A DNA stretch of 22,772 bases from Trichormus sp. ATA11-4-KO1. GTDB taxonomy: Bacteria > Cyanobacteriota > Cyanobacteriia > Cyanobacteriales > Nostocaceae. How positions within the stretch are numbered: the first letter of the stretch is position 1; every line of letters begins with the position of its first letter. Positions 1-20,421 of this stretch are shown piece after piece. The stretch is from assembly GCA_019358915.1 (NCBI GenBank), contig JAHHIM010000052.1, positions 1 through 22,772 of the forward strand, read 5' to 3'. Under the pieces are notes generated by a model. That model was not told where the DNA came from. It did no database searches and saw nothing but the letters and a program-made list of their open reading frames with translations. The position numbers and the translations under genes are program-made.

Positions 1-127
1 CCCTTGTAAATAATAATGAGTCTGTTTGCAATTAATGTGAGCCGAAGTCTTTTTCTGTTTGCAATTAATGTGAGCCAACAATTTTCTTGTTTGCAAGCCG
101 GAGCGTTTATGTTTGCGAGCCGCAACA
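1..127 (-). mobile_element. End of a DDE transposon (Tn7/Tn5053/Mu-like or IS21-like) inserted in cas1; element extends left beyond the window
   Basis: Minus strand from 127 reads TGTTGCGGCTCGCAAACA...; perfect 23-bp direct repeats TCTGTTTGCAATTAATGTGAGCC at 21-43 and 54-76, partial TGTTTGC copies at 88 and 110; Cas1 similarity stops exactly at the TGT. Confidence 0.7.
21..76. repeat. Two perfect 23-bp direct repeats, putative transposase-binding sites
   Basis: TCTGTTTGCAATTAATGTGAGCC at 21-43 and 54-76, 33-bp period. Confidence 0.9.
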
Positions 128-1491
128 GCTAGAGGTGCAGCTTGCGATCGCGGCTGATGGTAAAAACCCAAGGCAGATTCTAACCCAACAGTTAAGATGG
201 CGTTCATGACATCTTTGAGTAGTAAGGCATAACCAAAACTCAATAAGGCATTGAATCTGTCTTTGGGCGGACGACGATTTCTACCATTAAAGTGCAATTC
301 ACTGGCGACTTCTTGGGAAATCAAACACGGCAGCGCACCAAAATACAAGGCAGCAAGATTCCCTTCTAATCCCAACAAGGATTCCAACGATTTGGCTTGA
401 GGAACTTGTTTGAGTACAGCTTTCATTTGGGCGATCGTTTTACGCAAAGCCTCTGCTCCCCCAGCTTTTCCCCTAGTGCCTCGCATCAAGAACTTGCGTT
501 GTCCCTGACCACGGCAAACTACCAATTTACGGGCTAATTCTAGGCAGGTATCAGGATTACTTAAAGCCGCATACTGACGAATACGGCGTTGAATGCTACC
601 TTGTCGGGTGTCAAAACTACCAAGATAGCGTCCGCCTCCTGAAATAAAATGCACACCAATGCCCTGGTCAGCGCAAAAGTGCAATGCTTGAGTGGAGATT
701 TGCGAGAAGCTGTGCAATACTAGCTGCCCAACCTGACGAGCCGGAACTATTTCAATAGGTTGATTACGACGAGTAATTTTGATTTGTTCTCCTGTTCTAC
801 CAACACAGGTTCCAGGTTCCAAAACATGAATTACCTGCCGTTCATCATCTTCAGGAAACAGGCGAATTGGTTGCCATTCTTTATCATGAGCAAGTCGCGC
901 TTCTTCTGGTAAACAGACCGGAGCTAAAGAACAACGAGCGCATAATCGTTCGTTATTAGTTACTGGTGGTCTATGGGTTGATTGTCTGAGTGCGCGTGCT
1001 TGCTGAATTGCTTGCCTAACTGCTGCTCGTCCTGCATCATCTAATGGTACGTGAATCAGTACATTATCAGAATGGTAGCGAATGCGACCTTCTTTCACTG
1101 TAATTCCCAAGGCAGATTCTAAGAGGAAAGCATAAGCCAAAATTTGTAGGCGATCGCTCTCCCAGGCTTGGGGTTGCTTGTTCTCATCTCGATGACAACG
1201 ACCGCGTTTGTGTTCATAGGGAATTGTTTGCCCGTCACGGGTGCGAAGGGCATCAAGCCTACCACGTAAACCTAGTTCTTCGCTTTCAAGAAAAAGTTCT
1301 TCCCACTCCTCATCTTCTTGCTTTTCAATTTCAGCGTGCAGTCTGCGTCCAGCAAACACGGCTGCGTCTTGGGTGTAAAGTTCCTCGACTTCTTCAAGGT
1401 AGAAAAGGCGCGGGCAGTAGGCGAGAGCGTGGAGGGCAGAAACGCGCAGGGTGGTTTGACCGGATGAGATGGAAACCTCTAGTGTTTGCAT
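128..1491 (-). pseudogene. cas1: Cas4-Cas1 fusion (type I-B MYXAN), interrupted after ~455 aa
   Basis: Missing from the ORF track because the frame stays open to the window edge. Manual translation from ATG 1491: MQTLEVSISSGQTTLRVSALHALAYCPRLFYLEEVE...LRGRLDAL...YEHKRG...LCARCSLAPVC (Cas4 Fe-S cysteines, RecB motif), then LLGLEGNLAALYF...FNGRNRRPPKDRFNALLSFGYALL...GFYHQPRSQAAPLA (Cas1), then non-Cas1 sequence. Confidence 0.9.
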
Positions 1492-1521
1492 AGTAAAAAA
1501 ATTGCATTTCACTTTAAACAC

Positions 1522-1558
1522 AGGGTATGTCACTCACCCGGCAAAATAATTTCCGCCT
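1522..1558 (-). promoter_or_regulatory. Putative WYL-regulated promoter of cas4-cas1
   Basis: Minus strand AGGCGGAAATTATTT-TGCCGG-N10-TACCCT; box 1536-1558 is 20/23 identical to 9130-9152. Confidence 0.75.
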
Positions 1559-1733: not shown

Positions 1734-2450
1734 CTACAGCACATCTAAATTAGTAGGTCGTTTGGGTGTCCATGTCCAAGCATCTGGCGGCGGCTCTGAT
1801 GTTGGTTCCTCTAGAGGAGCATATAGTAAGCTAACTGTTTTACTATTATCGGTACGATTAATGTCCACAGTTAAACGATAAGAACCTCGCATGGGTAGAT
1901 TATCTGCTTGCATTTGTATATACCAAAATGTTGGTGGTGGTTCATCAAGAATATCAATTCGGTCAAATAGGAAGTTGTTATCTCCAGCGAAAGGTAAACC
2001 ATAACGGGGTGTGTTTAATTCACCGCACAGCCCTTTTTTAACCTGATTTATTAGCTCTTCTTGTGCTTGCACACCCAGCACCATATCCAGCCCAACTAGT
2101 AACTCTCGGCGAGCCGGAGTAATCCAGTATTTTGCACCTTTTGTACGGGGCTTAAGCTCCTCTTTGCCGGAATTTCCTACCGGATAAGTATGAAGTTGTT
2201 GATAAAGTGTGCAGATTTCGCTTTCACTGCCTGCAACAGTGCCAAACGCCAGCCTTAAACAAGGAATATCCGAGCGAATTGATGTGATTGGCTCAGAGGT
2301 GTGATCACGCATTTCAATGCCAGCCAAATTTAACACTAATCCCAGTGCAGCAGAAGGTGGCATGACTGGAGCCGTTGCCCGATATACTCCTGCTTGAAAT
2401 CCTCGAAAGGCAGCGAATGGAGCACGAATACGTAGCCAAAGGCAATCCAT
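1734..2450 (-). CDS. cas5: CRISPR-associated Cas5 (DevS/Cmx5 type)
   Basis: N-terminal LWLRIRAPFAAFR...PPSAALGLVLNLAG Cas5 motif, PRYGLPFAGDNNF; follows cas7. Confidence 0.92.
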   Translation of the reverse strand: MDCLWLRIRAPFAAFRGFQAGVYRATAPVMPPSAALGLVLNLAGIEMRDHTSEPITSIRSDIPCLRLAFGTVAGSESEICTLYQQLHTYPVGNSGKEELKPRTKGAKYWITPARRELLVGLDMVLGVQAQEELINQVKKGLCGELNTPRYGLPFAGDNNFLFDRIDILDEPPPTFWYIQMQADNLPMRGSYRLTVDINRTDNSKTVSLLYAPLEEPTSEPPPDAWTWTPKRPTNLDVL

Positions 2451-2464
2451 TAGTGTCTGTCTCC

Positions 2465-3343
2465 CTAACTTAAGAACGCATCAGCGATATCAGCCAGTAA
2501 CTTTTGAGGGTTTTCGTAAAGATGCACACCTTCATTTTCAAAATATTCACGCTTTTCGAGTTGCATAGCACGAACGATCTCACCACCAATCCAGAATTCT
2601 TCACCAGGTAAATCGCTAGCTTTGATGCGTCCTAGTTCTGGAAACTGCCCCTTGTCGTCAAAACCATAGGTGTCATAGCCTGCAACTAAGTTTGGTGTGA
2701 GTCTGGCAATAATACTTCTCGGAGCCATTTCATAGTAGCTGCGAGCGTGACCCCCTGCAACATCAGACAGTTGTGCAATTGCTTGAATCAGTGCTTTTGT
2801 CCAATCAGGTTTAACTTGGCAGTCAGAATAAGCCAACGCAAAGGGGTATTGATAAGCAGTGTGAGCTACTTCACGGTGTAGCAGGGCAGATGTTGAAGCA
2901 TTTTTCCAAGGGCTATTACCTGCATTTAAAGGAGATTGATGAAAAGTTGCATCAAAGCGGTAAGCGGTTAGTGCAACTGCCATATTCATTCGTAAAACAC
3001 TGTCTCGCTTAGGCGGTAAACCCTTGTTTTGCTTAATTGCATCTTTGTCTGCTACTAGATACCCAAACAAAAAATCATCAGCATATTTTTCGGCATTAGG
3101 GAACTCTTTGAATTCAACTGCTAGCTGGTCTTGGTCATGCAAGCGAGTGCGATTACAGGGTAGTCCAGCTTTGATTAACATCTCTCGCAGCGCATTTCGC
3201 ATGGATTCTGGGCTAATAACAGTGTATTCTTTATTGCCTTTAGCAATCTTTTGCAGCACAGTGCGGTTTTCTTCGCTCTCACCACGATAGTTTGAACTGG
3301 GTGCAGGATAGGTGAGAATGGTGGCAAATAGGTTCTTGTTCAT
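2465..3343 (-). CDS. cas7: CRISPR-associated Cas7 (Cst2/DevR type)
   Basis: SNYRGE, ISPESMRNALRE and DDFLFGY motifs; lies between cas8 and cas5. Confidence 0.92.
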   Translation of the reverse strand: MNKNLFATILTYPAPSSNYRGESEENRTVLQKIAKGNKEYTVISPESMRNALREMLIKAGLPCNRTRLHDQDQLAVEFKEFPNAEKYADDFLFGYLVADKDAIKQNKGLPPKRDSVLRMNMAVALTAYRFDATFHQSPLNAGNSPWKNASTSALLHREVAHTAYQYPFALAYSDCQVKPDWTKALIQAIAQLSDVAGGHARSYYEMAPRSIIARLTPNLVAGYDTYGFDDKGQFPELGRIKASDLPGEEFWIGGEIVRAMQLEKREYFENEGVHLYENPQKLLADIADAFLS

Positions 3344-3368
3344 AATATTAATACTGAGTTAATTTTGA

Positions 3369-3770
3369 TTAGCTGTTGGCAGAAAGGGCAAGTAACGTGA
3401 GGGTGCGGATGCGATCGCTATCCTCATACAAGGCTTTGGTTAAACTCACGTAGTCCTCTGATCTCATGTGTTGCGGTACTGAGCAAAGTGAAGAAACAAA
3501 GTAATTAATAAAATCTCTTTGCTCAGTACGACTACGAACATCAAGAAATGCAGTTTTAGCAATTTTGGCTTTCTTCTCGGTATACTCCTTGTAGTCAGGA
3601 CGTTTACTTAATTCATTTCGCCCTTCTTTGGCTGACAATAGTGGCTTCCACTCTGCTTTAAATTCCAATTGATATTTAGAATTTAGTTTCCGTCGAACAT
3701 AGTTTTCGACTAATCGAAATACTAATTGTTCAATATTAGTTTCCGTAACTGTTGTGGTTTCTTCATCCAT
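3369..3770 (-). CDS. cas11: Putative Cas11 small subunit translated from an internal start in cas8 (133 aa)
   Basis: In-frame ATG (M431, MDEETTTVTETNIEQLV...) after a linker, with weak SD-like ACGAGAT upstream; internal Cas11 translation is established for I-B/I-C/I-D. Confidence 0.6.
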   Translation of the reverse strand: MDEETTTVTETNIEQLVFRLVENYVRRKLNSKYQLEFKAEWKPLLSAKEGRNELSKRPDYKEYTEKKAKIAKTAFLDVRSRTEQRDFINYFVSSLCSVPQHMRSEDYVSLTKALYEDSDRIRTLTLLALSANS

Positions 3771-5060
3771 AGGTGCTATCTCGTTATTAAATGCTTCTCG
3801 AACGTCACGACAAAAGTAATCATTCTCGATACTTTGCTCATAGGGAAGACTGCACAGCAGAGCATCAAAGCCTGTGTACCAGGAGTGGTGGTTAACCAAG
3901 TTCAGCAGGCGTTGTCGGCGAAACAGAGGACTCCAGTAATTATCACGGATTTGAGCATATTCATCCACCATAGGCTCATCAGGGTCAACTCGAGATATAC
4001 TAAGTAACCTGACGTTATTCCCTCGTTTTTCTGTGTGAATGACATCCACACCCAAGAGGGTATAACCTGTTACTTGCTGTCCTGTTTTAACTGTGAGGCG
4101 AGACCGCAATCGTCGCATCACATCCAAGGCACTTTCAATAGCAAGATCAACTACTGCATCACGGGGGCGATAACCAGAGATTTCCGTACCGCGCTCACTC
4201 AACACCGCAGGTAATTCATCACAAAAAGCGTGAAGGTCAGCAATATCAGGAATTGCTAGAGCATAGCCTACAAAATCTCGGCTACCCTCGGTATTAATCA
4301 CTGCCGGAACATAGATTTGTGCTGTAAACAGCCAGAAGTGCAACAAAAATTGAAAGCGTCCCCGATCCTTGAATGGAACTGTTTCTGCATTAAATGCTTG
4401 TGCGCCCAGGAAATAGGTACTGGGTAGATCAACTGTGAACTCTAGGGGCTGTACTAACTCTTTCCAGATTTTACCTGCATCTTCAGTGTATGTTCCTTCT
4501 GCTCTAGCTTCAAACGGCTTACGAGTTGCTGGAACACCTCGCAAAATATTCCAAACCATGTCTCGCCACAGTTTGATCCAATAGCCATTCTTATTATCTG
4601 AACTTTTGTCATACTGAGAATCAGCTAAAAATGAGCCTTTAGGGACAACGACCGGATAGATATAGACTTTCTTCTTTTTGACTTTCTGCGGATTCTTAGG
4701 GTCAATCTCGTCCCGCTCCTCTTCCCGCAGGGGTGGAATTACTTCTTTTGTTCGTTGATTCTTGAGTGGTTGAGGTCGGGGCTGTTCCTCTGTACTCGCA
4801 GCGTAAACTTCATCAAACAACGCTTCTAAACCTGCTTGATTAATTTCAAGAGTTGCACCCTGGGTATCAAGTCGAGTTATTCGACAAATCGCCCCGTTGT
4901 TTATCTTCTCTTGGAAATCAGGCTGCCGCTCTAGCCACTTGATAATCAGTATCAAACCTGCCAAGCCTGCTCGATGCTGTGAGGAAGGCAGTTCAGCTAG
5001 TTGATAGTCAAGCGATAAAATATCTACTTCTGTGTTTGGTTTTGTTTTCGTCTTAGCCAA
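3369..5060 (-). CDS. cas8: Type I-B large subunit Cas8 (Cmx8)
   Basis: LAELPSSQHRAGLAGL, WIKLWRDMVWNILRG, F.DRGRFQFLLHFW and C-terminal RTLTLLALSANS typical of Cmx8; TTG start overlaps cas3 stop, GAGG RBS. Confidence 0.9.
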   Translation of the reverse strand: MAKTKTKPNTEVDILSLDYQLAELPSSQHRAGLAGLILIIKWLERQPDFQEKINNGAICRITRLDTQGATLEINQAGLEALFDEVYAASTEEQPRPQPLKNQRTKEVIPPLREEERDEIDPKNPQKVKKKKVYIYPVVVPKGSFLADSQYDKSSDNKNGYWIKLWRDMVWNILRGVPATRKPFEARAEGTYTEDAGKIWKELVQPLEFTVDLPSTYFLGAQAFNAETVPFKDRGRFQFLLHFWLFTAQIYVPAVINTEGSRDFVGYALAIPDIADLHAFCDELPAVLSERGTEISGYRPRDAVVDLAIESALDVMRRLRSRLTVKTGQQVTGYTLLGVDVIHTEKRGNNVRLLSISRVDPDEPMVDEYAQIRDNYWSPLFRRQRLLNLVNHHSWYTGFDALLCSLPYEQSIENDYFCRDVREAFNNEIAPMDEETTTVTETNIEQLVFRLVENYVRRKLNSKYQLEFKAEWKPLLSAKEGRNELSKRPDYKEYTEKKAKIAKTAFLDVRSRTEQRDFINYFVSSLCSVPQHMRSEDYVSLTKALYEDSDRIRTLTLLALSANS

Positions 5061-7437
5061 GTTCCACCTCGTCTAAGGGTTTAGTAATAAAGCCGTGATT
5101 CTCGTTATAGTTTCCTTCCCATTGGGCAACCCCTAAATATTTTGGCAGCCAGCAATGCTCTTCAGTTCGTTGATTGGCCCATTTTTTCGGTACGTTAATA
5201 ATGAATTTTTCCTTTTCATATTTTTTGGTAGAATCAATGACTTGTTTGACTACATCTAAATCTCGATCAAGAATGCAAGGCACAGCAAATTCATCTGTAT
5301 CCCGGAAGGAACCAGGGGTTGCATAGTAGCCACTATCTAAGAAGGGAGAACTGCCATCAGCCTTACGTTCCTGGCGCGTGTAATCATCGAAAGCAACCGC
5401 TAGTTGATATTGACTGATTTTGTCTGCACTCGATGATAAGAAAGATAGAAAGGCTTTCGCTTTTTCCAAGTCTTCTTTGTGATAAGGTCTGTCACTAGGA
5501 GGTTTGTAAGTGTACAGTATTGCAAATTCTCTTGTGAGATGTCGGTTAGCACGTCCAAACCTTTGCACCAAAGCTGATACCGGAGCAATTTCCGTAATCA
5601 GTACGTCTGCATCTAGGTCTAAACTCATTTCGCAGACTTGGGTAGTAACTGCGATCGCTCGTTCTGGTACTTTGTCTTTGGAGTAGGCAAAAGCAGCAAC
5701 AGTCTTACTGTGTATTCGTTGGCGATCGCACAGCCTAAACCGACTGTGATAGGTCAATACGCTGGTATTAAGTCGAGTTTCAAGTTTTTGGGCAATCGCC
5801 AAGCACCTATCCACCGTGTTGACGACCCACAACACCCGCAACCTCTGCTCATCATAAGCTGCAACTGCTTTATCAAAAGCAGCACTAAAGTTATCAACAG
5901 GTTCTAAACGATAACGCTCTGCTTCCTCTTTTTCTTTTAAATCCTTGAGCTTTTCCCTATCTACATCTGTGGGAAACACCTTTAACTCTGTCGCAACCAG
6001 TTCATCTCGCCGCGATTTCGGTAATGTTGCTGTCATGCAAAGCACTGGAATATGAAATGTTTGCAAAAAGCTGATTAACGAATCAAACATTGAGCGGTCA
6101 AAGCTATGTACCTCGTCAATAATAACTGCACTATCTGCTAGCACTGGCAGTAAGCATAAACTTTGATAGCTGTGTTCCATAAAGCTGAGGAATTGATCTA
6201 CCGTGGCACTGAAAAAGCGTTTAGACCAAAAGCCCAGAGCATACAGACGCTCATCAGCTTCAGAGCGGAAAGTTTTACCTGCGATCGCCTCATTTGGATT
6301 TTCTGCCATCGCTTCCAGTTCATACCGGGCGGTTCCTGTTATTAACGCGGCATCTGTCTCTGGTGCCCAGCCCACATAATCCCGGAATCCTTCAGTTGCA
6401 GTCCCACGAGTGGGATACAAAAAAATCACTTTTCCAATGTTGTAGATCCCAGATTGCGCTTCTGCCCATTTCCAAGCAGCCAAAGTTTTTCCAGCACCGC
6501 AGGCAGCTAGCAATAATGCTTTTGAGCCTTGCTCGGCAACCTGGTTCTGAAACTCCTGAAAAACAAACGATTTTTTGGTCTTTTCTTCAATTTGCTGAAT
6601 GCGCTTCTGAATAATTTTCTCTGCGATGTCTTTGGGTGTAATCGTCTCACAATGTACAACATCTTCAATCCATCTGGTAATTTCATGTCCTTCTCGTACT
6701 AATCCAGAAGCTGCTGCATCTGACACAATCAACCCAGCTTTGACTGCCACTAAAAACCGTTGGCGCTCTTTGTTTTCTCGAATAGCTCTACCAAATTGAT
6801 CGGCAAAGGTTCTTCCTTTCTTATAAGTTTGTTCCCACACTGAGCCAGCTTTCCAAGGGGTAATCGGTAGGCTAGGAGGTGGATCTAACTTTGCCAATTC
6901 TGCAATTGTGTTGAGTATGCGAGTAACTTCATTATGAATTAGGTACAGTTCTAACGATTTTTTAGATGACTGTGGTTGACACCATCGATAACTTTTACCA
7001 TCCTCCGTTGTTTTCTGATCCCTTCCAGCCTTCAAGTGATGGGACAATACTGCGGCTGTGATGACATCCACATCCAAATTAGAATCTTTAGAAGATAACC
7101 ACTTCCTAACTTCTGGCAGGCAGAGAATTAATGCGCTGAGGTGTTCATGGCGAAGTACCTGTGGCAGAAATTTAGCAGTTGTCACCGCCGCGTAGAAGTC
7201 TTCATTCGCTTTACCAATATCATGAAAAAGTGCAGCTACTTTTAAATTGAGGAGAAACTTTTGTCGTATTGCTTCTCCTTCTAGTTGAAAAAATCGGCAC
7301 CAGTTTTGTCCCCACCGACCGTTTAACCTAAAAATTTGTGTAGCAGCACTCTCGGTATCTCGTAAGTGAGATTCTAAAGTAATATCCTTACCTTGTCGCT
7401 TACTTTTTGCCAATAATTTCTCAGGAAGATTAGGCAT
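5053..7437 (-). CDS. cas3: CRISPR-associated Cas3 HD nuclease-helicase
   Basis: HD motif ALFHDIGK, Walker A AACGAGKT, DEVH, TAT, QRFGRANRH; start set at ATG 7437 (GGAGG RBS, overlaps cas6 stop) rather than 7536. Confidence 0.95.
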   Translation of the reverse strand: MPNLPEKLLAKSKRQGKDITLESHLRDTESAATQIFRLNGRWGQNWCRFFQLEGEAIRQKFLLNLKVAALFHDIGKANEDFYAAVTTAKFLPQVLRHEHLSALILCLPEVRKWLSSKDSNLDVDVITAAVLSHHLKAGRDQKTTEDGKSYRWCQPQSSKKSLELYLIHNEVTRILNTIAELAKLDPPPSLPITPWKAGSVWEQTYKKGRTFADQFGRAIRENKERQRFLVAVKAGLIVSDAAASGLVREGHEITRWIEDVVHCETITPKDIAEKIIQKRIQQIEEKTKKSFVFQEFQNQVAEQGSKALLLAACGAGKTLAAWKWAEAQSGIYNIGKVIFLYPTRGTATEGFRDYVGWAPETDAALITGTARYELEAMAENPNEAIAGKTFRSEADERLYALGFWSKRFFSATVDQFLSFMEHSYQSLCLLPVLADSAVIIDEVHSFDRSMFDSLISFLQTFHIPVLCMTATLPKSRRDELVATELKVFPTDVDREKLKDLKEKEEAERYRLEPVDNFSAAFDKAVAAYDEQRLRVLWVVNTVDRCLAIAQKLETRLNTSVLTYHSRFRLCDRQRIHSKTVAAFAYSKDKVPERAIAVTTQVCEMSLDLDADVLITEIAPVSALVQRFGRANRHLTREFAILYTYKPPSDRPYHKEDLEKAKAFLSFLSSSADKISQYQLAVAFDDYTRQERKADGSSPFLDSGYYATPGSFRDTDEFAVPCILDRDLDVVKQVIDSTKKYEKEKFIINVPKKWANQRTEEHCWLPKYLGVAQWEGNYNENHGFITKPLDEVELG

Positions 7438-8104
7438 CGTAAAACCTCCAGGCACGCGGAAATGGGGTGAAAATGCCACAACCCATGCGATGTTTACCCC
7501 CAAGTCCGAAGGTTTGTAACTTGATGGAGTCCTCATCGTTAAGCCCTGTCACATTGACACTGAACCCGACAACTGAGTAAGTTTTGATTTTAATGGCTTT
7601 ACGGCTCAATTCCCCCTCTTCATTCAAAGGAATTGAAATATTACCTTGAATACCCAGTACATCCAATTGACGTTTAGCTGCTTCTAAAAATGGCTCAGGT
7701 TCTTGAAATTTTTTAATCGTGACAATACGCGATCGCAATTTATCAGTAGAGCGCAAGGGAAAAATTTGAGGAATGCCTAGTTGAATCTCATGGATGCCAA
7801 TAATTAGCCTTTTTCCAGCTAAAGGAAGCACGAGCGAAATTTTGTCTGGTTCGTAGGGCAGGCGAATTTTTAATCGAGATTGCTTGCTGAGGACAATTTT
7901 ACCTTGTCGATCTGGCTTCCCAGAGATAGTTTGGATACTTAACCATTCCTGCTCATGAAGAGCAGGACAAATGTTTGCGATCGCTGAATACAACCCATAG
8001 CCATGATCTGCTGGGAGGGTCTGACCTGAAATTCCAAAGCTCATCTCAACGTCAGGTAAATTGAATTCTTTTATCTGCTGTTCCTCACTCTGACTCGTCA
8101 ACAT
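7430..8104 (-). CDS. cas6: CRISPR-associated endoribonuclease Cas6 (Cmx6)
   Basis: LPADHGYGLYSAI and Gly-rich loop GLGGKHRMGCGIF. Confidence 0.93.
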   Translation of the reverse strand: MLTSQSEEQQIKEFNLPDVEMSFGISGQTLPADHGYGLYSAIANICPALHEQEWLSIQTISGKPDRQGKIVLSKQSRLKIRLPYEPDKISLVLPLAGKRLIIGIHEIQLGIPQIFPLRSTDKLRSRIVTIKKFQEPEPFLEAAKRQLDVLGIQGNISIPLNEEGELSRKAIKIKTYSVVGFSVNVTGLNDEDSIKLQTFGLGGKHRMGCGIFTPFPRAWRFYDA

Positions 8105-8106
8105 AT

Positions 8107-9090
8107 TTAAACTGCTCCTGAAAGAGTGTAATAACTACTCATCGCTTCCACCTCATCTTGAACCATTTGCACCAACTCAGGCGGCCCTTTAACAATCGCT
8201 CCCTTGCCATACCCCAACACCCATCTTTTCAACTCATTTAAACCTGTTACCTGCATTTGCAAAGTAATAGAACCATCAGAATGCTCTTCAATTTCTTGAG
8301 TAGGATGCCAACGTCGTTCCCGCACATAGGGAGCAGTTGAGGTATCAAACCAAATTGCCACAGGTACAGGATTTCCACTGCCTACTTCCGATTGAAAAAT
8401 TTTTTCTAAATGTTCTTTAGCATTGAAAGTTGGATCACGAATAAACTTACTACTGAGTAGTTGTAATTCCTTAATTCTGTCCACACGAAACCAGCGTATA
8501 GCCTGTCGTAGATTACAGAAGCCAATAACATAAGGATTAGTGCCTCTATAAATGTGTAATAAATAAGGGTCTATTACCCTATCGGAACTAGTATTGCGAC
8601 TGGCAGTGTAATAGTGAATTTTGACTTGTTGAGAGTTGCGACACGCTTCAACTAACTGACTCCAAATTTGGGGGTTGAGATAAGTTTCAGCTCCCGCCGT
8701 AAAAATAATTCTTTCATCAGCTATTTGTTGCAAGTCTACCCAACTCTGCTCAGGTAATCGTTCACTTAACCGCAAAATTGCGGAACGTAAATCATTGACG
8801 TAAGCAGACCCAGCATAAGCTTGCAGCATCCTCGCTCCTAAAGTCAAAGCAAATAATTCTCCTTGCGAAAGAGAAATACTAGGCAATCGCCATTCTAGGT
8901 CAGTGTAGTGATGGCCCTTTTTCCGAGTAAACTCTAAAGGTGCATTAAAGCGATCGCGCAAAAAAGCCAAGTCACTGCGAACTGTACGCTCACTAACTTC
9001 TAAAACTTCGGCAAGGCTTTTAGTTGTTGGTCGCGTAGTTGTTCTGAGTAACGAATCAACCTGCAATAATCGCTCTAAATGCCTGGACAT
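8107..9090 (-). CDS. HTH-WYL-WCX transcriptional regulator (PafB/PafC/YafY-like)
   Basis: N-terminal wHTH (LAEVLEVSERTVRSDLAFLR), WYL core (R.IDPY...YVIGFC..RQAIRWFRVDRI), WCX tail (WVLGYG..AIVKGPPEL). Confidence 0.92.
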   Translation of the reverse strand: MSRHLERLLQVDSLLRTTTRPTTKSLAEVLEVSERTVRSDLAFLRDRFNAPLEFTRKKGHHYTDLEWRLPSISLSQGELFALTLGARMLQAYAGSAYVNDLRSAILRLSERLPEQSWVDLQQIADERIIFTAGAETYLNPQIWSQLVEACRNSQQVKIHYYTASRNTSSDRVIDPYLLHIYRGTNPYVIGFCNLRQAIRWFRVDRIKELQLLSSKFIRDPTFNAKEHLEKIFQSEVGSGNPVPVAIWFDTSTAPYVRERRWHPTQEIEEHSDGSITLQMQVTGLNELKRWVLGYGKGAIVKGPPELVQMVQDEVEAMSSYYTLSGAV

Positions 9091-9115
9091 AAATACTTAA
9101 CTAACAATTTACCTG

Positions 9116-9152
9116 ATTCTAAATGAGTTACCCGGCAAAAACACTTCCGCCT
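9116..9152 (-). promoter_or_regulatory. Putative WYL-regulated promoter of the wyl-cas operon
   Basis: Minus strand AGGCGGAAGTGTTTT-TGCCGG-N10-TAGAAT; same box and spacing as upstream of cas4-cas1. Confidence 0.75.
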
Positions 9153-9174
9153 ACAAAAATCTAAAAAAACTCAA

Positions 9175-11788: not shown

Positions 11789-11837
11789 CAAAGAACTTAG
11801 TGTAAGCTTTTCTTTATTGAGTTGGACAATATATAAA

Positions 11838-12602
11838 TTGCTGTCTTGTGCCTGCGTTTCGCTTTCCGGCGGACAAGGGAAAACCACCGTAGCTTTTTTT
11901 CTCTCTCTGCTGCTTGCCAGTCAGGGTAAACGAGTCTTGGCCATAGACTGTGACCCACAAGCCAACCTAACCTTTTACCTGAATCATGAAGTAGCTGCCA
12001 ATCAACCCAGTTTACTGGAAGTTCTCACTGGTGCTGTAACCATAGAAGATGGTATCTATCCCACTCAACACAGTAACCTGTTCCTCATCCCTGCGGATAG
12101 AAGCTTATTCAAAGTTTCAGATTACCTAGTCAACAGTGGTGCAGGTGCGTTTATCCTCAAACTGAGATTACGCAACGTGCAATCTTTATTTGATTACGTA
12201 ATTATTGATGTCCAACCCTCGCGATCACAAATCTGTTTAACCGCAGTCGGAGCATCTGAAAAAATTCTGATTCCCGTGGAAGCTACGACCAAAGGAGTCA
12301 ATTCCCTAATTGATACCCAGGACTTTTTACAAGACCAAACATCAATCATGGCATTTACAGGAAAGGTTTTGGGAATAATCCCCTTTCGAGATCGGTGGAT
12401 TGGCAACACTCAAACTCTTGAGGGTAAAGAGAACATTGCTGCTATGAGAGAATTCGCTGGCGACATTCCCGTGCTACCCTCTATTCGAGAATCAGAACAG
12501 TTTAAACGTGCTATCCGTAAAGGGAAACTGTTATCAGAACTTGGACAAAAAGACCTGGAATATCCCTTTGAGCAAATTATTAAAATACTGAATCATGAGT
12601 GA
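11838..12602 (+). CDS. parA: ParA-family ATPase, McdA type-1-like
   Basis: Walker A SLSGGQGKTT lacking the signature Lys, IDCDPQANL, IPVEATTKG, PFRDRW, ESEQFKRAI; closely resembles S. elongatus McdA as recalled; start TTG 11838 (or 11817). Confidence 0.9.
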   Translation: MLSCACVSLSGGQGKTTVAFFLSLLLASQGKRVLAIDCDPQANLTFYLNHEVAANQPSLLEVLTGAVTIEDGIYPTQHSNLFLIPADRSLFKVSDYLVNSGAGAFILKLRLRNVQSLFDYVIIDVQPSRSQICLTAVGASEKILIPVEATTKGVNSLIDTQDFLQDQTSIMAFTGKVLGIIPFRDRWIGNTQTLEGKENIAAMREFAGDIPVLPSIRESEQFKRAIRKGKLLSELGQKDLEYPFEQIIKILNHE

Positions 12603-13041
12603 TGATGCCCTAGAACGCCTGAAAAAACGGCAACGTCCCAATGTTCCTACTCGTGATACTTCTTTGATATCTAACAGTCAAGATATCTCGATACCTGGAT
12701 ATCAAGATGCTAAGGTATCTAGCACACAAAACATCCCTAACTCTAACAGTCAAGATATCTCGACACCTGGATATCAAGATGCTAAGGTATCTATACATCC
12801 AGTAGTTAAAATTAAGCAGAGTACCATTCGCTTGGAAGCAGAACTGAGTGAACGCTTGAGTGAAATGTGTAAAATCAATGGCATTAGCAGGGAAGTATTA
12901 ATAGAAGCATTATTTGAACACTACGAGGCTGACCCCCAAGCATTACAGGCTATCTTGGCACTAGCAAAAGTCAAGGGTGAACAAAGAATGCAAATTGCCA
13001 ATATGAAACGAGCGCAATCAATGATGCAGCGTTTTGGTTAA
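12595..13041 (+). CDS. ParA partner: McdB-like basic N-terminus, repeat linker, RHH-like C-terminus
   Basis: Overlaps parA stop; MSDDALERLKKRQRP resembles the McdB N-terminus; KQSTIRLEAELSERLSEMCKINGISREVLIEALF fits beta-alpha-alpha RHH. Confidence 0.8.
   Translation: MSDDALERLKKRQRPNVPTRDTSLISNSQDISIPGYQDAKVSSTQNIPNSNSQDISTPGYQDAKVSIHPVVKIKQSTIRLEAELSERLSEMCKINGISREVLIEALFEHYEADPQALQAILALAKVKGEQRMQIANMKRAQSMMQRFG
12670..12793. repeat. 52-bp direct repeat (72-bp period) built from 8-bp units inside the ParA-partner gene
   Basis: 12670-12721 vs 12742-12793, one mismatch; units caagatat ctcgatac ctggatat caagatgc taaggtat. Confidence 0.9.
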
Positions 13042-13082
13042 TTACTGAGTGTAATAACCATCCCCTAACCCCAAAAAGCACC

Positions 13083-13325
13083 ATGACTCAAAAAACTCAA
13101 AAAACTTATCAACTTCCTCTGACCTTTGAGCAAATTCTTAGTCTTGTCCTACAACTTCCAATACAAGAACAAGAACAACTCATTCAAGAAATTAAGAAAA
13201 AATCTCCCAAAAATAAAGATGAAGATGAAGATTTACTGAGTGTTTTTGACAGAATCGGCAGAAATGCTCAAGCCAAAGGACTAACTGAAGACATCCTAGA
13301 AGAATTACTCGCCGATGAATCATAA
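13083..13325 (+). CDS. Putative antitoxin of a PIN-family TA pair
   Basis: 80 aa, acidic C-terminus AKGLTEDILEELLADES, overlaps the start of a PIN gene. Confidence 0.65.
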   Translation: MTQKTQKTYQLPLTFEQILSLVLQLPIQEQEQLIQEIKKKSPKNKDEDEDLLSVFDRIGRNAQAKGLTEDILEELLADES

Positions 13326-13479
13326 ACTAATTGTCATTGACACAAATGTTTTACTTAGTGCTGCCCTGAGTCCAGAAGGAACATCTCGTAAAGCCTTAAA
13401 TAAAGCTTATAAAGAATTCAAAATTGCTCAAAGTGATGAAACTTATCAAGAATTAAAGACACGAATTTACAAGGGATGA
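13315..13479 (+). pseudogene. Truncated PIN-domain toxin (54 aa)
   Basis: MNHKLIVIDTNVLLSAALSPEGTSRKAL...YQELKTRIYKG*; the IDTNVL motif marks a PIN N-terminus, full PIN domains are ~130-140 aa. Confidence 0.8.
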
Positions 13480-13483
13480 AAAT

Positions 13484-13600
13484 TTATGGCACATCTATTT
13501 TACCTGTAACAACATTGGTGATCAGGGCGGTGCGATATTCTTTTAATAGTTCTATTATTTGTTGAATCTCAGCTTTTTTTGTTGATTAATCTTGGCTATG
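13484..13600 (-). pseudogene. hsdS: 3' remnant of a type I restriction-modification specificity subunit
   Basis: Minus strand IAKINQQK / frameshift in A7 run / AEIQQIIELLKEYRTALITNVVTGKIDVP*, matching the conserved HsdS C-terminal helix (LLKEYR.ALIT.AVTGKIDV). Confidence 0.7.
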
Positions 13601-13643
13601 GAGTTAATTTTTCAGACTAACAGAACACGCAAATATTGCCAGA

Positions 13644-14246
13644 TCACAAATTACCCCAATCAAAATTCAAGAAGCGTCGAGCATTCAGCTTGGTATATTT
13701 TTCCGTGTGTTTAATATCACGGTGTCCCAAAAAGTCTTGAATCTCTCTGGTGCTGTAACCTTGATTCACCAGATAATAGCCGCAAGCATGGCGCATCATG
13801 TGACAGTGAACTTTGATATCGAGTCCCGCCTGGGCGGACAATCGCCCCATCAGCTTCCGCACCGCATCAGTGGACATCACTTGACCACGCTCGGACATGA
13901 AAAGATATTTACTATCAGGAAATTGCTCTCGCAGTTTTTTGAGTAATTCCAGTTCATCGTCTCTGAGGGGATGCACCCCAGAATCACTGCCCTTTTCCCT
14001 AGTGATGAAAATCTGACGTTCACCCCACATAATCGCATCCCAGCGTAAGCCGCATTTCGCACCCACAGCTTCCCCTACCCGCAGCCCGTGGCGGAACATC
14101 ATCAACATCAGTGTGTAATCACGGTGGGCATAACGAGCTTTGCGTTCGAGTGCCGCATTGAACAGAGATCGTACCTCAGATGGTGTAAGGTATTCTCTAG
14201 ACCTGTAATGCTTATTCGGTAGACGAACTGGGGGCGGTGGCCTCAT
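13644..14246 (-). CDS. Tyrosine recombinase, catalytic-domain-only FimB/FimE-like resolvase
   Basis: RHGLRVGE (R), REKG (K), HCHMMRH (HxxR), LGHRDIKHTEKY (H, Y); 200 aa. Confidence 0.92.
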   Translation of the reverse strand: MRPPPPVRLPNKHYRSREYLTPSEVRSLFNAALERKARYAHRDYTLMLMMFRHGLRVGEAVGAKCGLRWDAIMWGERQIFITREKGSDSGVHPLRDDELELLKKLREQFPDSKYLFMSERGQVMSTDAVRKLMGRLSAQAGLDIKVHCHMMRHACGYYLVNQGYSTREIQDFLGHRDIKHTEKYTKLNARRFLNFDWGNL

Positions 14247-14580: not shown

Positions 14581-15276
14581 TTAGAAACGAAAACTGAGTT
14601 TCGCTTGGTGATTATTCTGTGGTGTAACTTCAGCAATCATCATTCCCCACACAACACTAAAACGAAATTTAGTTGCGCGCTCTATATCAAAATGTGCAGA
14701 CCTTAGTAAACTATGAAACTGTTTTTGGGTGTAACACTGTTTGTAAGCAGGGTCAACAAACTTCAATATAAAATCACATATCTGACACGATAAATAATCT
14801 TTACACCAATCTAAAATAAATACTTTACCTTCTGGTTTTAAAACACGTCTTATTTCCATTAATGCAGCATGAGGAGCATCAAAATAATGAAATGCACTTG
14901 CAGATACAATTACATCAAAACTGTTATCTACAAATGGTAAATTTGACACACTTGCATTCTGAAATGAAACATGAGAATAAGTACGACATTTTTGTTGAGC
15001 TACGAGGAGCATTTCTGCGGAAATATCTACTCCAGTAATCACTTGCTGTGGATTTTCAGTGAGTAATAATTGCTCAAATTCTCCTGTTCCACAGCCAATA
15101 TCAAGCACTGTCGCTTCTGGTGGAATCTCTGCCCAATTTTTTAGAGCAGATAGTGATTTGGCAATATATGTATTCCAACGCTGGTCATATGACTTTGCCA
15201 TCTGGTCGTATTGTTGGCGAATTACTTTTTCACTCATAGCTATTTTTTGTCCGGTATTTAGTTCAAGTTGATTCAT
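14581..15276 (-). CDS. Class I SAM-dependent methyltransferase (UbiE/Methyltransf_11-like)
   Basis: VLDIGCGTG, GVDIS, LPFVDNSFDVIVS, RVLKPEGK; start ATG 15276 (overlapping LysR stop) or 15237. Confidence 0.88.
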   Translation of the reverse strand: MNQLELNTGQKIAMSEKVIRQQYDQMAKSYDQRWNTYIAKSLSALKNWAEIPPEATVLDIGCGTGEFEQLLLTENPQQVITGVDISAEMLLVAQQKCRTYSHVSFQNASVSNLPFVDNSFDVIVSASAFHYFDAPHAALMEIRRVLKPEGKVFILDWCKDYLSCQICDFILKFVDPAYKQCYTQKQFHSLLRSAHFDIERATKFRFSVVWGMMIAEVTPQNNHQAKLSFRF

Positions 15277-16138
15277 GCAATAATATTTGAGTGAATTGGT
15301 GGACTGGACTCTGGCAAGATATGCTACTGCGCCAGATAACAAATAATTCTTTGCGTAAGGTTTTGTTATCTACATCTATAGGAATGGCGTATAGTAACCC
15401 TGCTTGTACCTCTTGAGTAACTGATTTTGACAGCACAATTGAAACTCCTAACCCTGCTTGTACGGCTCGTTTGACAGCTTCTGTACTACCCAATTGCATG
15501 GAAATTCGCATTTTGTGAACTTGCTCACCAAAAAATTGCTGTAGTAAGCGTCCAGTACCAGTACCTCTTTCTCCGCCTAACATTTCGATATTTTCTAGAT
15601 AGGCTTTGGGGACTTTCGGCAAATCTCGCCAAGGATGATTTGGTGGCACTATGAAGACAAGTTCTTCGCTTTGCCAAAGTTGAGATGTAAACCCAGGACG
15701 ATTATCCCACCACTCCATTAAGGCTATATCTACTAATCCAGTTTCTAACTTGTCAGCGATCGCCGGATTAGCATCAATTACTAAATCCACTTCATAGGAG
15801 TTATCATACTGTTCCAAATGATATTTCAAATACGGGGGTAAGAGATAAATACCAATATTAGAACTCGCCCCAATTCGCAATTTTGTAGATTTGAGGGCTG
15901 AAACTGCTCTTTGTGTTACCAAAATTAGACTTTCGGCATAAGGAAGTAATTTCTGTGCCGCAGGAGTCAATTGATTACCCTTGCGATCGCGGATAATCAG
16001 TTGAGTGTTCAAAGATGCTTCTAACTTTTTAATGTGTTGTGAGACAGCAGGTTGAGAAATTCCCAGTTGTTTGGCAGCTTGGCGAAAACTCCCTGTATGG
16101 ACAACGGCTAAAAAACTTTCTACGTACTCAAAATTCAT
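15263..16138 (-). CDS. ptxE: LysR-family regulator (PtxE-like)
   Basis: GSFRQAAKQLGISQPAVSQHIKKLE HTH, STEAVKRAVQAGLGVS; downstream of ptxD as in ptxABCDE. Confidence 0.8.
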   Translation of the reverse strand: MNFEYVESFLAVVHTGSFRQAAKQLGISQPAVSQHIKKLEASLNTQLIIRDRKGNQLTPAAQKLLPYAESLILVTQRAVSALKSTKLRIGASSNIGIYLLPPYLKYHLEQYDNSYEVDLVIDANPAIADKLETGLVDIALMEWWDNRPGFTSQLWQSEELVFIVPPNHPWRDLPKVPKAYLENIEMLGGERGTGTGRLLQQFFGEQVHKMRISMQLGSTEAVKRAVQAGLGVSIVLSKSVTQEVQAGLLYAIPIDVDNKTLRKELFVIWRSSISCQSPVHQFTQILLHEST

Positions 16139-16150
16139 AGGTGGGGCAAA

Positions 16151-16307
16151 TCAAGTCAAAAGGAGCCAGTGCATTGGGCGGCTATGCCGATTTGTAGCAA
16201 CTGGCGTTCAAAAGTCAAAAAGAGCCAGTGCGCCCTTGCGGGTTTCCCAACTTGTAGCAACTGGCGCGGCTTCTCGCAGAGTAGCAACTAGCGTTCAAAA
16301 GTCAAAA
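16151..16307. repeat. TCAAAAG heptamer tract with nested ~45-bp palindromic small dispersed repeats
   Basis: GAGCCAGTGC...GCAACTGGCGT at 16163-16207, a variant from 16222, and a further copy at 22132-22176. Confidence 0.8.
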
Positions 16308-16536
16308 TTAAATAACTTTTTTAAAGGAGACAAGGAAGTAAAAAGGTAAAAGAAAATGGCTTTTGCGTCCCTTTTATGGTGAATGAAGATTGATTATTAC
16401 AACAAAACCCTTACCCCGCAAGGGTTATAAAAAATTCAGCGCTGTTTTAAATGAAATCCTTACAGGGTAAGACTTGCAATGATTTCTAATCAGTTTTTTC
16501 ATAAGAGTAACCGAAAAAACCAGAAAAATTGACTGT

Positions 16537-17526
16537 TTATGGACAATTAACTGCTCCCTGTGGTTTTTGATTTTGCAGGGCTTGCAGAATATTTTGGGCG
16601 GCTTCTAAGGCAATGTTGCGCCGCAAATCATCAACAGCAGATCCAATATGGGGAGTGAGAAAGGTTTGATTAGTGTTTTCTATTAATGACTGGGGTATGC
16701 TGTGGGGGCGATCACTACGATACCAATCTTCCATTTCAAACACATCGGCAGCGTAACCTGCTAAGTGTCCAGATTCTAAAGCTTGACATACAGCTTGTTC
16801 ATCAACTACAGAACCACGACAGGGGTTAATTAAAAAGCTGCCTGGTTTCATTTTGGCTAAGGTGTTGGCGTTGATTAAATGAAAGGTTGCTGGTTGCAGA
16901 GGTACTACCAACACAATAAAATCACTTACTTCTATTAAAGTATCAAAAGGCACTTGTGATAAATTCCATGCTGCCTCTTGTTCTGGAGTTAAAGCCACCG
17001 GATCACTGTAAAGTAACCGCATCTCAAAACCCACCAGCCGTTGAACGAGCGCTTTGCCCAATGCACCCATACCAACAATTCCCAAGGTGCGATTTGCTAA
17101 ACCTAGGCTGTAAAATTGGGGTCGCCATCCGGCAAATTTACCTGTGCGAATGAAGCGATCGCCTGCTAACATCTGTCGTGCTAACCCAATTAATAACCCA
17201 ATGGTAATTTCGGCAGTGGGTGCAGACAACAAAGAAGGCACAATTGTAAACCATACACCGCAACGGGTACAGGCATCAACATCAAAGTTGTCGTAGCCTT
17301 TGAGGGCGGCTCCAATCACTTTTAGCTGGGAACACTGCCGCAGAAAAGCTTCATCAATGGTGTCTGGCATAAATACCATTAATGCCTCAGCATTTTTAGC
17401 CCGTTGCAGAATTTCTTCACGAGATAAAGACTCTTTACTGGGGTTAGCAATTACCTCACAATGAGGTTCGAGGAGTTCAATGACTTCTGGATGTACCCAG
17501 TTAGTAATCACAACATTTGGTTTCAT
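16537..17526 (-). CDS. ptxD: NAD-dependent phosphite dehydrogenase
   Basis: D-2-hydroxyacid dehydrogenase fold with PtxD residues ALKGYDNFD (K), [10 protein letters not shown] (R), DVFEMED (E), TPHIGSA (H); GMGALG Rossmann motif; follows ABC genes. Confidence 0.95.
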
Positions 17527-17535
17527 GATATTTCC

Positions 17536-18345
17536 TCAAGCTAACCGTCTGCGTAAATAGTTACTGAAACTATCTACCAATATCACCATCATCAAAATGA
17601 CGAGTAGTATTGCTGCTACTTCTTTATACCTAAGAATACGTAAAGAACCAATTAGTTCAAACCCTATACCGCCTGCCCCGACTGCACCCATGACAGTAGA
17701 AGCGCGAAAGTTATATTCCCAACGATATAAGGTAACATCTAACATTTGCGGCAAAACTTGCGGTAAAACACTGTGATAAATTACCTGAATTTTGTTGGCA
17801 CCAGCCGCCTGTGCTGCTTCGATTGGTGCAGAGTGTACGTGTTCGATGTACTCAGCAAAAAACTTACCCACCATCCCAATTGAATGTAACCCCACTGCCA
17901 ACGCTCCTGGCAATGCACCAAACCCTACCGCAGCCACTAAAATAATTCCCATAATCAGTTCTGGCACAGCCCGTAAAGCATTGAGAATCAGACGTGCTAC
18001 CTGAAACACAATCGGGTGGGGTGTAGTATTCCCAGCTGCTAGTAGTGATAACGGTAGAGAAAAAGTAACTGCAATGGCGGTTCCTGCAACACTCATCGCC
18101 AAGGTGTCAAACAGTGGCTTAATCCAGTTGATAACCGAACTAAAATCAGGCGGTAGCATTTGGCCAATTAAATTAATCCCACTAGGCACACCCTCAGCTA
18201 ATCTTTCCCAATCAAAAAGACCAACTAATAAGAAAGATATCATCACAATTACTACAACAATAGTTACTTGCAGTAAATGCTTATATCTCTGTTGTCTTTG
18301 TTGTTTTAACAGTGGTTCAAATTTTTGATAACGATTGGTTGTCAT
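17536..18345 (-). CDS. ptxC: Phosphite ABC transporter permease (PhnE-like)
   Basis: Hydrophobic TM segments, EAA motif (PIEAAQAAGA), YRWEYNFRASTVMGAVGAGGIG. Confidence 0.92.
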   Translation of the reverse strand: MTTNRYQKFEPLLKQQRQQRYKHLLQVTIVVVIVMISFLLVGLFDWERLAEGVPSGINLIGQMLPPDFSSVINWIKPLFDTLAMSVAGTAIAVTFSLPLSLLAAGNTTPHPIVFQVARLILNALRAVPELIMGIILVAAVGFGALPGALAVGLHSIGMVGKFFAEYIEHVHSAPIEAAQAAGANKIQVIYHSVLPQVLPQMLDVTLYRWEYNFRASTVMGAVGAGGIGFELIGSLRILRYKEVAAILLVILMMVILVDSFSNYLRRRLA

Positions 18346-18606
18346 AAAACTCGATTGAATAGGTAGGAAGGAAAAGGAAGAAGGTAATATGTGGTCTGAA
18401 AATCATATCTTTGAAACCAGAATTCTTCAATTTGTTGGTTAAATTAGTCCCTATTAATTGGCTCTTACGTTGGTTTTTTGGTACGGCATTAAAATAGCCG
18501 TTTTATAGAAAGGCTAAAAAATCTAAAATCCAGTGAGAGCAAAGAACATAGGCTCTGATTAGATTTTATTTCTTATTCGACTCCATAAAAGGCACTGAAA
18601 AGCCTA

Positions 18607-19608
<1,002 letters not shown>

Positions 19609-19620
19609 TTATCTTCTGCC

Positions 19621-20421
19621 TTATCTATGAGAGGCTTTGCCAACTGCCTTCTCAATCAATTCTTCTGCATCATCTAGGTGAATATTTTCGGTATTGCCAT
19701 AGATGCGATTAAGTTCACCTTCCTGAATACCTGCGGCATTACCATCAAAAACTACATGACCTTGAGATACACCAATTATCCTGTCTGCATAGGTTTTAGC
19801 TAAGTCTACTTGGTGTAGACTCATAATTGCCGCAATGCCGTCTTCTTGACAAATTTGACGTAGAAAAGAAATCACCTTGTGGGAACTAGCAGGGTCAAGG
19901 CTGGCAACCGGCTCATCTGCCAGAATTAACCGGGGTTTCTGCGCCAACGCACGCGCAATACCTACCCGTTGCTGTTGTCCACCACTAAGATTATCTACTC
20001 GTGTTAAAGCTTTATTTAATAGTCCTACTCTTTCTAAACATTCCAAGGCTATATATTTGTCAGCATTGGGTAATGGAAAAAAGCTTCTCAGAGTTGAGTG
20101 ATAGGCTAAACGACCAGTCAGCACATTTTGTAGTGCAGTTTGTCTACCAATTAACTGGTGCTGCTGAAAAATCATCCCTGTGCGCTGGCGATGTTGATGT
20201 AGTACCTTGGGTTCATTGAGTTGGCGCCAACCTTCTACTGTAATAGACCCTGCCGTTGGTTGGATGAGTCCATTTAAACACCGGAGCAAAGTTGATTTAC
20301 CTGAACCAGAAGCTCCCAAGATGACTGTAAACTCTCCTGGGTTAAAGTTTAAAGAAACTGACTGGAGGGCTTGAACTCCGCCAGGATAAGTTACACTCAA
20401 GCGATCCAGCTGAATTATCAT
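19621..20421 (-). CDS. ptxA: Phosphite ABC transporter ATP-binding protein (PhnC-like)
   Basis: GASGSGKST, LSGGQQQRV, ADEPVASLDP. Confidence 0.93.
   Translation of the reverse strand: MIIQLDRLSVTYPGGVQALQSVSLNFNPGEFTVILGASGSGKSTLLRCLNGLIQPTAGSITVEGWRQLNEPKVLHQHRQRTGMIFQQHQLIGRQTALQNVLTGRLAYHSTLRSFFPLPNADKYIALECLERVGLLNKALTRVDNLSGGQQQRVGIARALAQKPRLILADEPVASLDPASSHKVISFLRQICQEDGIAAIMSLHQVDLAKTYADRIIGVSQGHVVFDGNAAGIQEGELNRIYGNTENIHLDDAEELIEKAVGKASHR

Follow-up and report, generated by a model that had tools for sequence, protein, structure and literature searches.

A 23-bp pseudo-palindrome in the cas4-cas1 promoter of a cyanobacterial type I-B CRISPR locus is very probably, as judged from sequence comparisons, the binding site of the WYL sensor protein encoded beside it. 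On balance, we favor the view that this protein is a DriD-class homodimer, gated by ssDNA, that activates both promoters of one CRISPR locus. The switching-on of spacer acquisition upon infection is a largely open matter, and WYL proteins linked to defence usually figure as repressors, at least in the accounts we drew on (PMC10853764 among them). We give here the exact operator, the promoter geometry and the predicted starts for a probable locus-encoded activator. A search of full-text literature, the coverage of which leaves out most subscription papers, returned no description of this motif or circuit; a WYL gene has been noted in a Microcystis I-B1 locus, in a report that leaves its function untested (PMC11855584).

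The locus and its two boxes

The stretch of DNA analysed (22,772 nt; the window) is the entire contig C52 of a 5.97-Mb genome that is 99.9% complete. All features of the locus lie on the minus strand. The wyl gene (8107..9090) codes for a 327-aa regulator with the domain order wHTH-3-helix-bundle-WYL-WCX, whose closest relatives are found in the Nostocaceae; it was the only WYL-domain gene found in this genome. Immediately behind it, tightly packed (1734..8104), come cas6 (7430-8104), cas3 (5053-7437), cas8/cmx8 (3369-5060), cas7 (2465-3343) and cas5 (1734-2450), and a gap of 242 nt separates cas5 from the cas4-cas1 fusion (128..1491; TIGR03983; ATG at 1491). The presence of cmx8, cmx6, cmx5/DevS, a Cas7/DevR-like protein, cas3 and the fusion assigns the locus to type I-B (I-MYXAN), with the Cas7 match falling just below its cut-offs. 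The fusion is broken after about codon 454 by the end of a multicopy insertion element (1..127, minus strand), with TG...CA inverted ends, internal 23-nt direct repeats (21-43 and 54-76) and an apparent 6-bp target duplication at 128-133. The rest of cas1, cas2 and an array of 33 repeats are on contig C68. The element (window 1-133 and C68 1-430) has 13 more matches, at the ends of nine other contigs, and presumably resembles the IS21 family. Since cas1 is interrupted, spacer acquisition is probably dead in this strain and the cas4-cas1 promoter may be a relic here. Elsewhere in the window (11817-14246 and 15263-20421), a parA gene and its small RHH partner, together with an integrase-family gene, suggest a plasmid or island. 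Genes for a LysR-like protein, a dehydrogenase and an ABC transporter follow and look, from their translations, like what we take to be a phosphite-use (ptx) cluster.

The box of the cas4-cas1 promoter (1536..1558, minus strand) covers -43..-21 relative to the predicted start, with its dyad at -32 (1547). It consists of an upstream half-site (1558-1551; -43..-36), a 7-bp spacer over the -35 position (1550-1544) and a downstream half-site (1543-1536; -28..-21), and a matrix for which only wyl promoters served as training set gives it 34.3 bits. The second box (9130..9152, minus strand; 39.6 bits) has the same geometry and lies in the promoter of the wyl-cas6-cas3-cas8-cas7-cas5 operon. A preliminary description of this DNA had noticed that the first box recurs at the second position with 20 of 23 bases identical, that TGCCGG stands exactly 10 nt before a -10 hexamer at both promoters, and that the normal -35 positions (ATTATT and GTGTTT) are poor; all three observations were borne out, and a sigma70 scan found no promoter at either box. 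The description had overlooked the two half-sites that make the box a pseudo-palindrome. The -10 hexamers are TACCCT for cas4-cas1 (1522..1527, minus strand; 3/6 to consensus and among the weakest -10 elements of our collection) and TAGAAT for wyl (9116..9121, minus strand), so that TGCCGG-N10-TACCCT occupies 1543-1522 and TGCCGG-N10-TAGAAT occupies 9137-9116. Transcription of cas4-cas1 is predicted to start within 1514..1516 (minus strand), with T at -1 (1516) and A at +1 (1515), which would give a leader of 24 nt from 1515 to the ATG at 1491; for wyl, the predicted start is at about 9109-9110. The position near 1515 proposed earlier agrees with the start signature of the 16 distinct cas4 boxes of our wyl-anchored set (see below), which have a pyrimidine at -1 (16/16), an A at +1 (13/16) and a purine at +2 (16/16). 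Reading TTGCCG as an ordinary -35 element was rejected, as the spacer would be 11 nt, and so was a GTG at 1533 as the cas4 start codon, which lies upstream of the predicted transcription start.

TGCCGG-N10-TAnnnT has just two matches in the window, against a mean of 0.12 in shuffled sequences (two were reached by 1 of 100 shuffles). This short pattern is not enriched in the genome as a whole, with 19 matches at N10 and 10-29 at other spacings. The 19 box positions common to both copies, in contrast, were found in the 5.97-Mb genome only at 1536-1558 and 9130-9152, the next-best sites having four mismatches. Thus, with the short pattern at genome background, the signal resides in the whole box. 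A wider regulon was considered and rejected: the matrix had 101 matches of at least 9 bits in the genome, and only three of them (the two boxes and one 14-bit site) carried TAnnnT at N10. Just 5' of the wyl box is a conserved T-tract (9155-9159). A T-tract at about -52..-46 and an A at -44/-43 are kept only upstream of the wyl box, with T in 32-35 of 45 promoters at -50..-48, and the tract is weaker at cas4 promoters than at wyl promoters; presumably, it resembles an UP element.

Conservation of the box and its association with wyl

Two samples of loci were compared. The first, anchored on wyl, returned 80 loci, 47 of them close (cyanobacterial-type) relatives; together with the window, 45 of 48 had 5' context. 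Boxes at wyl were picked without using the -10 element. A box with at most four mismatches was present upstream of wyl in 41/45, and the remaining four had palindromic variants at the same place. TAnnnT followed at N10 in every case (41/41) and never at N9 or N11 (0/41), while the -10 element lay 23 to 51 nt from the start codon and the free spacer showed only 35% identity. The wyl promoters have a common descent, and all counts given here are inflated by kin. The cas4 start was reached in 23 loci of this sample, and the box was found within 100 nt in 14, 722-1425 nt upstream in three and not at all in six. All 17 cas4 boxes (16/16 distinct copies) had TAnnnT at N10. The three displaced boxes sit after cas5, with inserted genes of 185-207 aa and no NCBIfam match between box and cas4 (L030:17666-18922, L038:16248-16802 and L039:13786-14373); because of where they lie, these genes would be WYL-controlled passengers.

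For the second sample, a Cas4 search of 251 genomes of the order led to 48 other genomes, the upstream DNA of which was analysed; three of the loci repeat the first set. There were 35 loci with a full wyl gene, seven with none, one with a fragment and five that were too short, so that a full-length WYL relative accompanied cas4-cas1 in 35/43 loci with enough context. With a cut-off of at least 8 bits within 200 nt, which 2.2% of random windows reach, a box preceded cas4 in 27/35 loci with wyl, in 0/7 without it and in 0/1 with the fragment (Fisher p 2.4e-4, a value that is overstated since kin are not independent). Searching the seven wyl-less genomes with the WYL query found no homolog. The preliminary description had proposed a motif search upstream of cas4/cas1 in other cyanobacterial I-B loci as a check; the element proves strongly conserved. 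Among the eight misses in wyl-bearing loci were five sub-cut-off variant boxes (L158 and L160 by score; L132, L143 and L157 by eye) and three loci with none. The 27 boxes carried TAnnnT in 23 cases and nAnnnT in 26, with one N9 site (L149), and the wyl promoters of this sample had TAnnnT at N10 in 35/35. That 3/35 wyl-bearing loci have no cas4 box and that one site is at N9 count against the reading favored here.

Pooling gave 115 distinct cyanobacterial copies. TAnnnT stood at exactly 10 nt in 111/115 and nAnnnT in 114/115; the best -35 match was at most 2/6 in 115/115, and an extended -10 occurred in 2/115. The -10 elements mostly match 4-5 of 6 positions. Many cyanobacterial promoters function without a -35 element and the -35 bases inside the box are not free, which weakens the argument from the missing -35. 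In three loci (L143, L144 and L146), wyl and cas4 are arranged head-to-head, each with its own box and -10 element, and thus read-through cannot explain the cas4 promoter. The earlier proposal that the adaptation module is separately inducible by the local WYL protein holds in so far as the box tracks with the WYL gene, but "separately" is too strong, since the same box heads the interference operon and both promoters would answer one signal. The wyl and cas4 boxes of one locus resemble each other slightly more than boxes from different loci do (p 0.03, 17 loci). In Synechocystis PCC 6714, both boxes are on plasmid pSYLB. No such box was seen in 23 non-cyanobacterial relatives with a readable upstream region (best 0.2 bits), and none of at least 12 bits was found behind cas2 in the fetched loci.

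It is very improbable that another factor (a global regulator or an alternative sigma factor) or an RNA element uses the box and that the box merely travels with wyl. A weak 5-bp stem does overlap 1523-1539; as a hairpin it is at chance level and was rejected. The box should not be part of any transcript, given its place upstream of the predicted start, which argues against an RNA element. Moreover, the genome has only two sites, the box is absent where wyl is absent or a fragment, and variant sites accompany divergent WYL proteins (L132).

In L012, L019, L020 and L032, type I-E operons (cas3, cse1) are headed by this WYL family and box as well, and the module thus moves between CRISPR subtypes. 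An orphan homolog (53%) in Synechocystis PCC 6803 (sll5097 on pSYSM; L082:9909-10978) keeps the box and has no cas genes behind it. Of 22 distinct box-less loci, 16 have a single CRISPR-repeat-like unit (score at least 15) before cas4; of 45 loci with a box, only one does. The unit lies about 50-63 nt before the cas4 start in L119, L124, L125, L127, L129, L133, L116, L118, L026, L023, L030, L038, L039 and L162, and further upstream in L115 and L132. Possibly, the solitary repeat is a Cas6 site that controls the adaptation message, as an alternative to the WYL promoter. In L015 and L022, sequences right at the predicted start may be decayed repeats. No repeat-like unit was found in the cas intergenic regions of the window, and a weak match at 14172, inside the integrase-family gene (10.5 bits), is probably due to chance. 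Many loci have a 700-nt gap between wyl and cas6; the window has none. After the wyl stop codon of PCC 6714 (L081:15001-15128; pSYLB 41118-41245), the published tables list a very abundant non-coding transcript, TU6041, with up to 45,734 reads. Its region contains a spacer flanked by two degenerate repeats; the spacer is similar to a sequence that lies shortly downstream, before hicBA-cas6. We take TU6041 to be a candidate Cas-regulating RNA.

The half-sites, the WYL protein and the mode of action

The two halves of the box vary together. Among the 115 sites, G-38 pairs with C-26 in 113 and A-36 with T-28 in 109; complementary bases stand at -39/-25 in 105 (G-C in 91 and T-A in 14) against 82.6 expected, and -40/-24 in 93 against 75.7 expected. 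The T-A variant at -39/-25 requires five changes on a tree of 69 WYL proteins, and loci with a variant wyl box show the same variant at cas4 (L015, L081 and L010; L132, L157, L158 and L160). C-26 is the invariant base of the box, and G-27 and C-25, the bases that PafB reads, vary. Because the two half-sites are equally conserved and co-vary, we predict that both HTHs are on DNA.

The AlphaFold model of the WYL protein (mean pLDDT 77.8; linker 46-56) has a wHTH, three linker helices, and WYL and WCX domains. It gave TM scores of 0.60-0.62 with DriD, 0.42-0.47 with PafB/PafC and 0.30-0.34 with BrxR/CapW, the helix-beta-hairpin linker fold of which is replaced by three helices in the model, at low confidence. 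PafC is the best single-sequence match, and there was no alignment to the cyanobacterial repressor Sll7009 (best E 0.72). Helix 3 has the form RT[IV]R[SND]D, with R35-T36 (DriD R37-T38) kept in 31/31 cyanobacterial rows; an Arg at the PafB R50/DriD R41 position was found in 0/31, with Ser, Asn or Asp there instead, and at the wing tip there are basic or polar residues instead of Trp. R35-T36 without an R41 equivalent would fit half-sites that each have one invariant G-C pair, and A-T where DriD has C-G. The arginine pair of the WYL domain that corresponds to the ssDNA-binding R211/R214 described for PafB (PMC11804915) is kept (R202 in 30/31, R205 in 31/31), with ssDNA as the putative ligand. 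The residues by which DriD contacts polymerase (G18/A20 and R120-R122) are not evidently kept. Modelling the WYL dimer in complex with the host alpha-CTD gave a score of 0.01, which we weigh neither for nor against a contact.

The preliminary description had called the cas4-cas1 promoter PafBC-style. A promoter-like element of its own, the N10 spacing and the missing -35 stand; the style is not supported, as DriD shares the register. According to the structural report, PafBC reads tGTCgg(N10)tA(N3)T with one HTH and holds sigma4 with the other, for which it is a heterodimer (PMC8635444). DriD is described with both HTHs on a pseudo-palindrome over the -35 position, polymerase being recruited through beta and alpha-CTD, and its sites lie at a constant distance from the -10, overlap the -35 position and have no -35 (PMC13004042). 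By our own count from the probes printed there, with optimal -35, the downstream half-site is at -28..-23 and 10 nt from the -10, to within ±1 nt. Thus, N10 does not point to PafBC, and the spacing marks WYL activators in general, not sigma adaptation. For the present protein, sigma adaptation would mean one HTH of a homodimer on the -26 half-site and the other displacing sigma region 4, which we consider improbable. It is true that TGCCGG at -28..-23 occupies the PafBC position, with N10 (PMC8635444), that PafC is the nearest sequence, and that the homodimer SiwR depends on the -26 region, its authors finding a related mechanism plausible (PMC10693628). The equally conserved, co-varying upstream half-site, the single WYL gene, the absence of TGTC (0/115), the missing second DNA-reading Arg and the wing tip without Trp all tell against it, and the earlier claim of sigma adaptation as in PafBC is not supported.

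Published Synechocystis dRNA-seq tables (PCC 6714 and PCC 6803; PMC5386190, PMC4195498) call no start at 3/3 predicted positions. For PCC 6714 (pSYLB), these are about 40069 for wyl and about 48785 for cas4/1, where the covering transcription units start at 39804 and 48363, and for PCC 6803 (pSYSM) about 94888 for sll5097, where the covering unit starts at 95162. The ten conditions in these tables, which may omit weak starts, include neither DNA damage nor phage. Since the inducing condition is absent, the missing starts fit a silent promoter of either sign: they exclude a strong constitutive promoter and do not tell an activator from a repressor. The upstream units that cover wyl are a constitutive source of the sensor in both strains.

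A repressor operator like those of BrxR, CapW or Sll7009, with the dimer covering the -35 position of a -10-only promoter and ssDNA releasing it, would have the same output (induction on ssDNA) with the sign reversed. We regard this as unlikely, though the autoregulatory layout at the head of a defence operon, the palindromic site over the -35 position and the -10 elements with 4-5 of 6 matches would suit it, as would the absence of called starts in uninduced cells. According to the papers we drew on, moreover, WYL proteins linked to defence generally act as repressors, the gene for DriD is not activated by DriD itself, and Sll7009 represses type I-D CRISPR in Synechocystis (review PMC10212523). 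However, the predicted fold and linker belong to the activator class, not to that of BrxR/CapW, as the classes are distinguished in PMC10853764 and PMC11662680; the protein does not align to Sll7009; and a repressor needs no base-exact spacing, yet 114/115 sites keep it at two different promoters.

In the DriD-like activation that we favor, ssDNA from phage or plasmid replication, from DNA damage or from Cas3 degradation products would bind the WYL domains and free the two winged HTH domains. These would then settle on the two half-sites, spanning the -35 position, and bring RNA polymerase to the -10 at its fixed distance, the box acting as a WYL operator within two sigma70-type promoters that have neither a -35 nor an extended -10. 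The interference operon, including wyl itself (a positive loop), and cas4-cas1-cas2 would be switched on together, the second promoter giving spacer acquisition an inducible start of its own. More tentatively, and with the odds rather against it, cyanobacterial type I-B loci (and some I-E loci) may hold a self-contained, ssDNA-sensing positive-feedback activator circuit for interference and acquisition, with box-less loci using the solitary repeat instead. In such a circuit, ssDNA released by Cas3 could feed the loop and time priming, and control over acquisition would fall to either of two interchangeable devices, the protein-based box or the RNA-based repeat unit.

Comparison with known systems

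Several known regulators share features with the present one. Like Sll7009, BrxR and CapW, the WYL protein has its gene next to a defence system; the operators of BrxR and CapW are palindromic and CapW senses ssDNA. BrxR and CapW, however, have a different linker fold, and Sll7009 is not alignable and divergent to cas3 of a type I-D system. Csa3a of the Sulfolobus islandicus type I-A system is also described as a locus-encoded activator of adaptation genes (PMC4333418), but is an archaeal MarR-like/CARF-family protein acting at archaeal promoters, unrelated in protein and signal. DdaA of Moraxellaceae/Acinetobacter is reported to be a homodimeric activator of the WYL type that has a palindromic site and increases both the expression of CRISPR-Cas (I-F) and immunity (PMC12392091, PMC13010146). 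As a global DNA-damage regulator, DdaA acts in trans, and its motif is reported to lie about 50 bp upstream of the start, whereas here the regulator is within the cas operon, with two sites and a separate adaptation promoter. SiwR of Mycobacterium smegmatis is likewise presented as a local homodimeric WYL activator, with an imperfect palindrome that needs the -26 region (PMC10693628), but it controls divergent dinB-like genes.

With PafBC of M. smegmatis (PDB 7P5X, 9FND; PMC8635444, PMC11804915), as described there, the system has in common an element at -28..-23, N10, TAnnnT, the lack of a -35, the domain order and the ssDNA-binding arginine pair. PafBC, however, is a heterodimer on a single non-palindromic half-site, and here there are one gene, two half-sites and no equivalent of R50/W70. 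The GTC triplet that R46 and R50 read in PafBC is not conserved in our sites, and in place of a heterodimer or fusion there is a single 327-aa unit with a DNA-type helix 3.

The closest likeness in our comparison by fold is to DriD of Caulobacter crescentus (PDB 8TP8, 9PFV), which the published accounts describe as a 327-aa wHTH-3HB-WYL-WCX homodimer (PMC10853764, PMC13004042). Common to both are a pseudo-palindrome with a 7-bp T/A-rich center over the -35 position, the fixed -10 distance and the lack of a -35, and the first Arg-Thr of the recognition helix and the WYL arginines are conserved. The two differ in that identity is about 19%, the half-site is GG(A/C)A...T(G/T)CC here and CGAC...GTCG in DriD, the dyad is about 1 bp further upstream (own count) and the basic patch of the 3HB is not evidently kept. 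The targets here are the protein's own operon and cas genes (two sites), and those reported for DriD are DNA-repair genes and not its own gene. In sum, the marks of a DriD orthologue (CGXC-N7-GXCG, R41, G18/A20, R120-R122 and a repair regulon) differ. The WYL protein most likely works like DriD but is neither a DriD orthologue nor, by the marks compared here, a PafBC-type protein, and its contact with polymerase may represent a third mode, distinct from those of DriD and PafBC.
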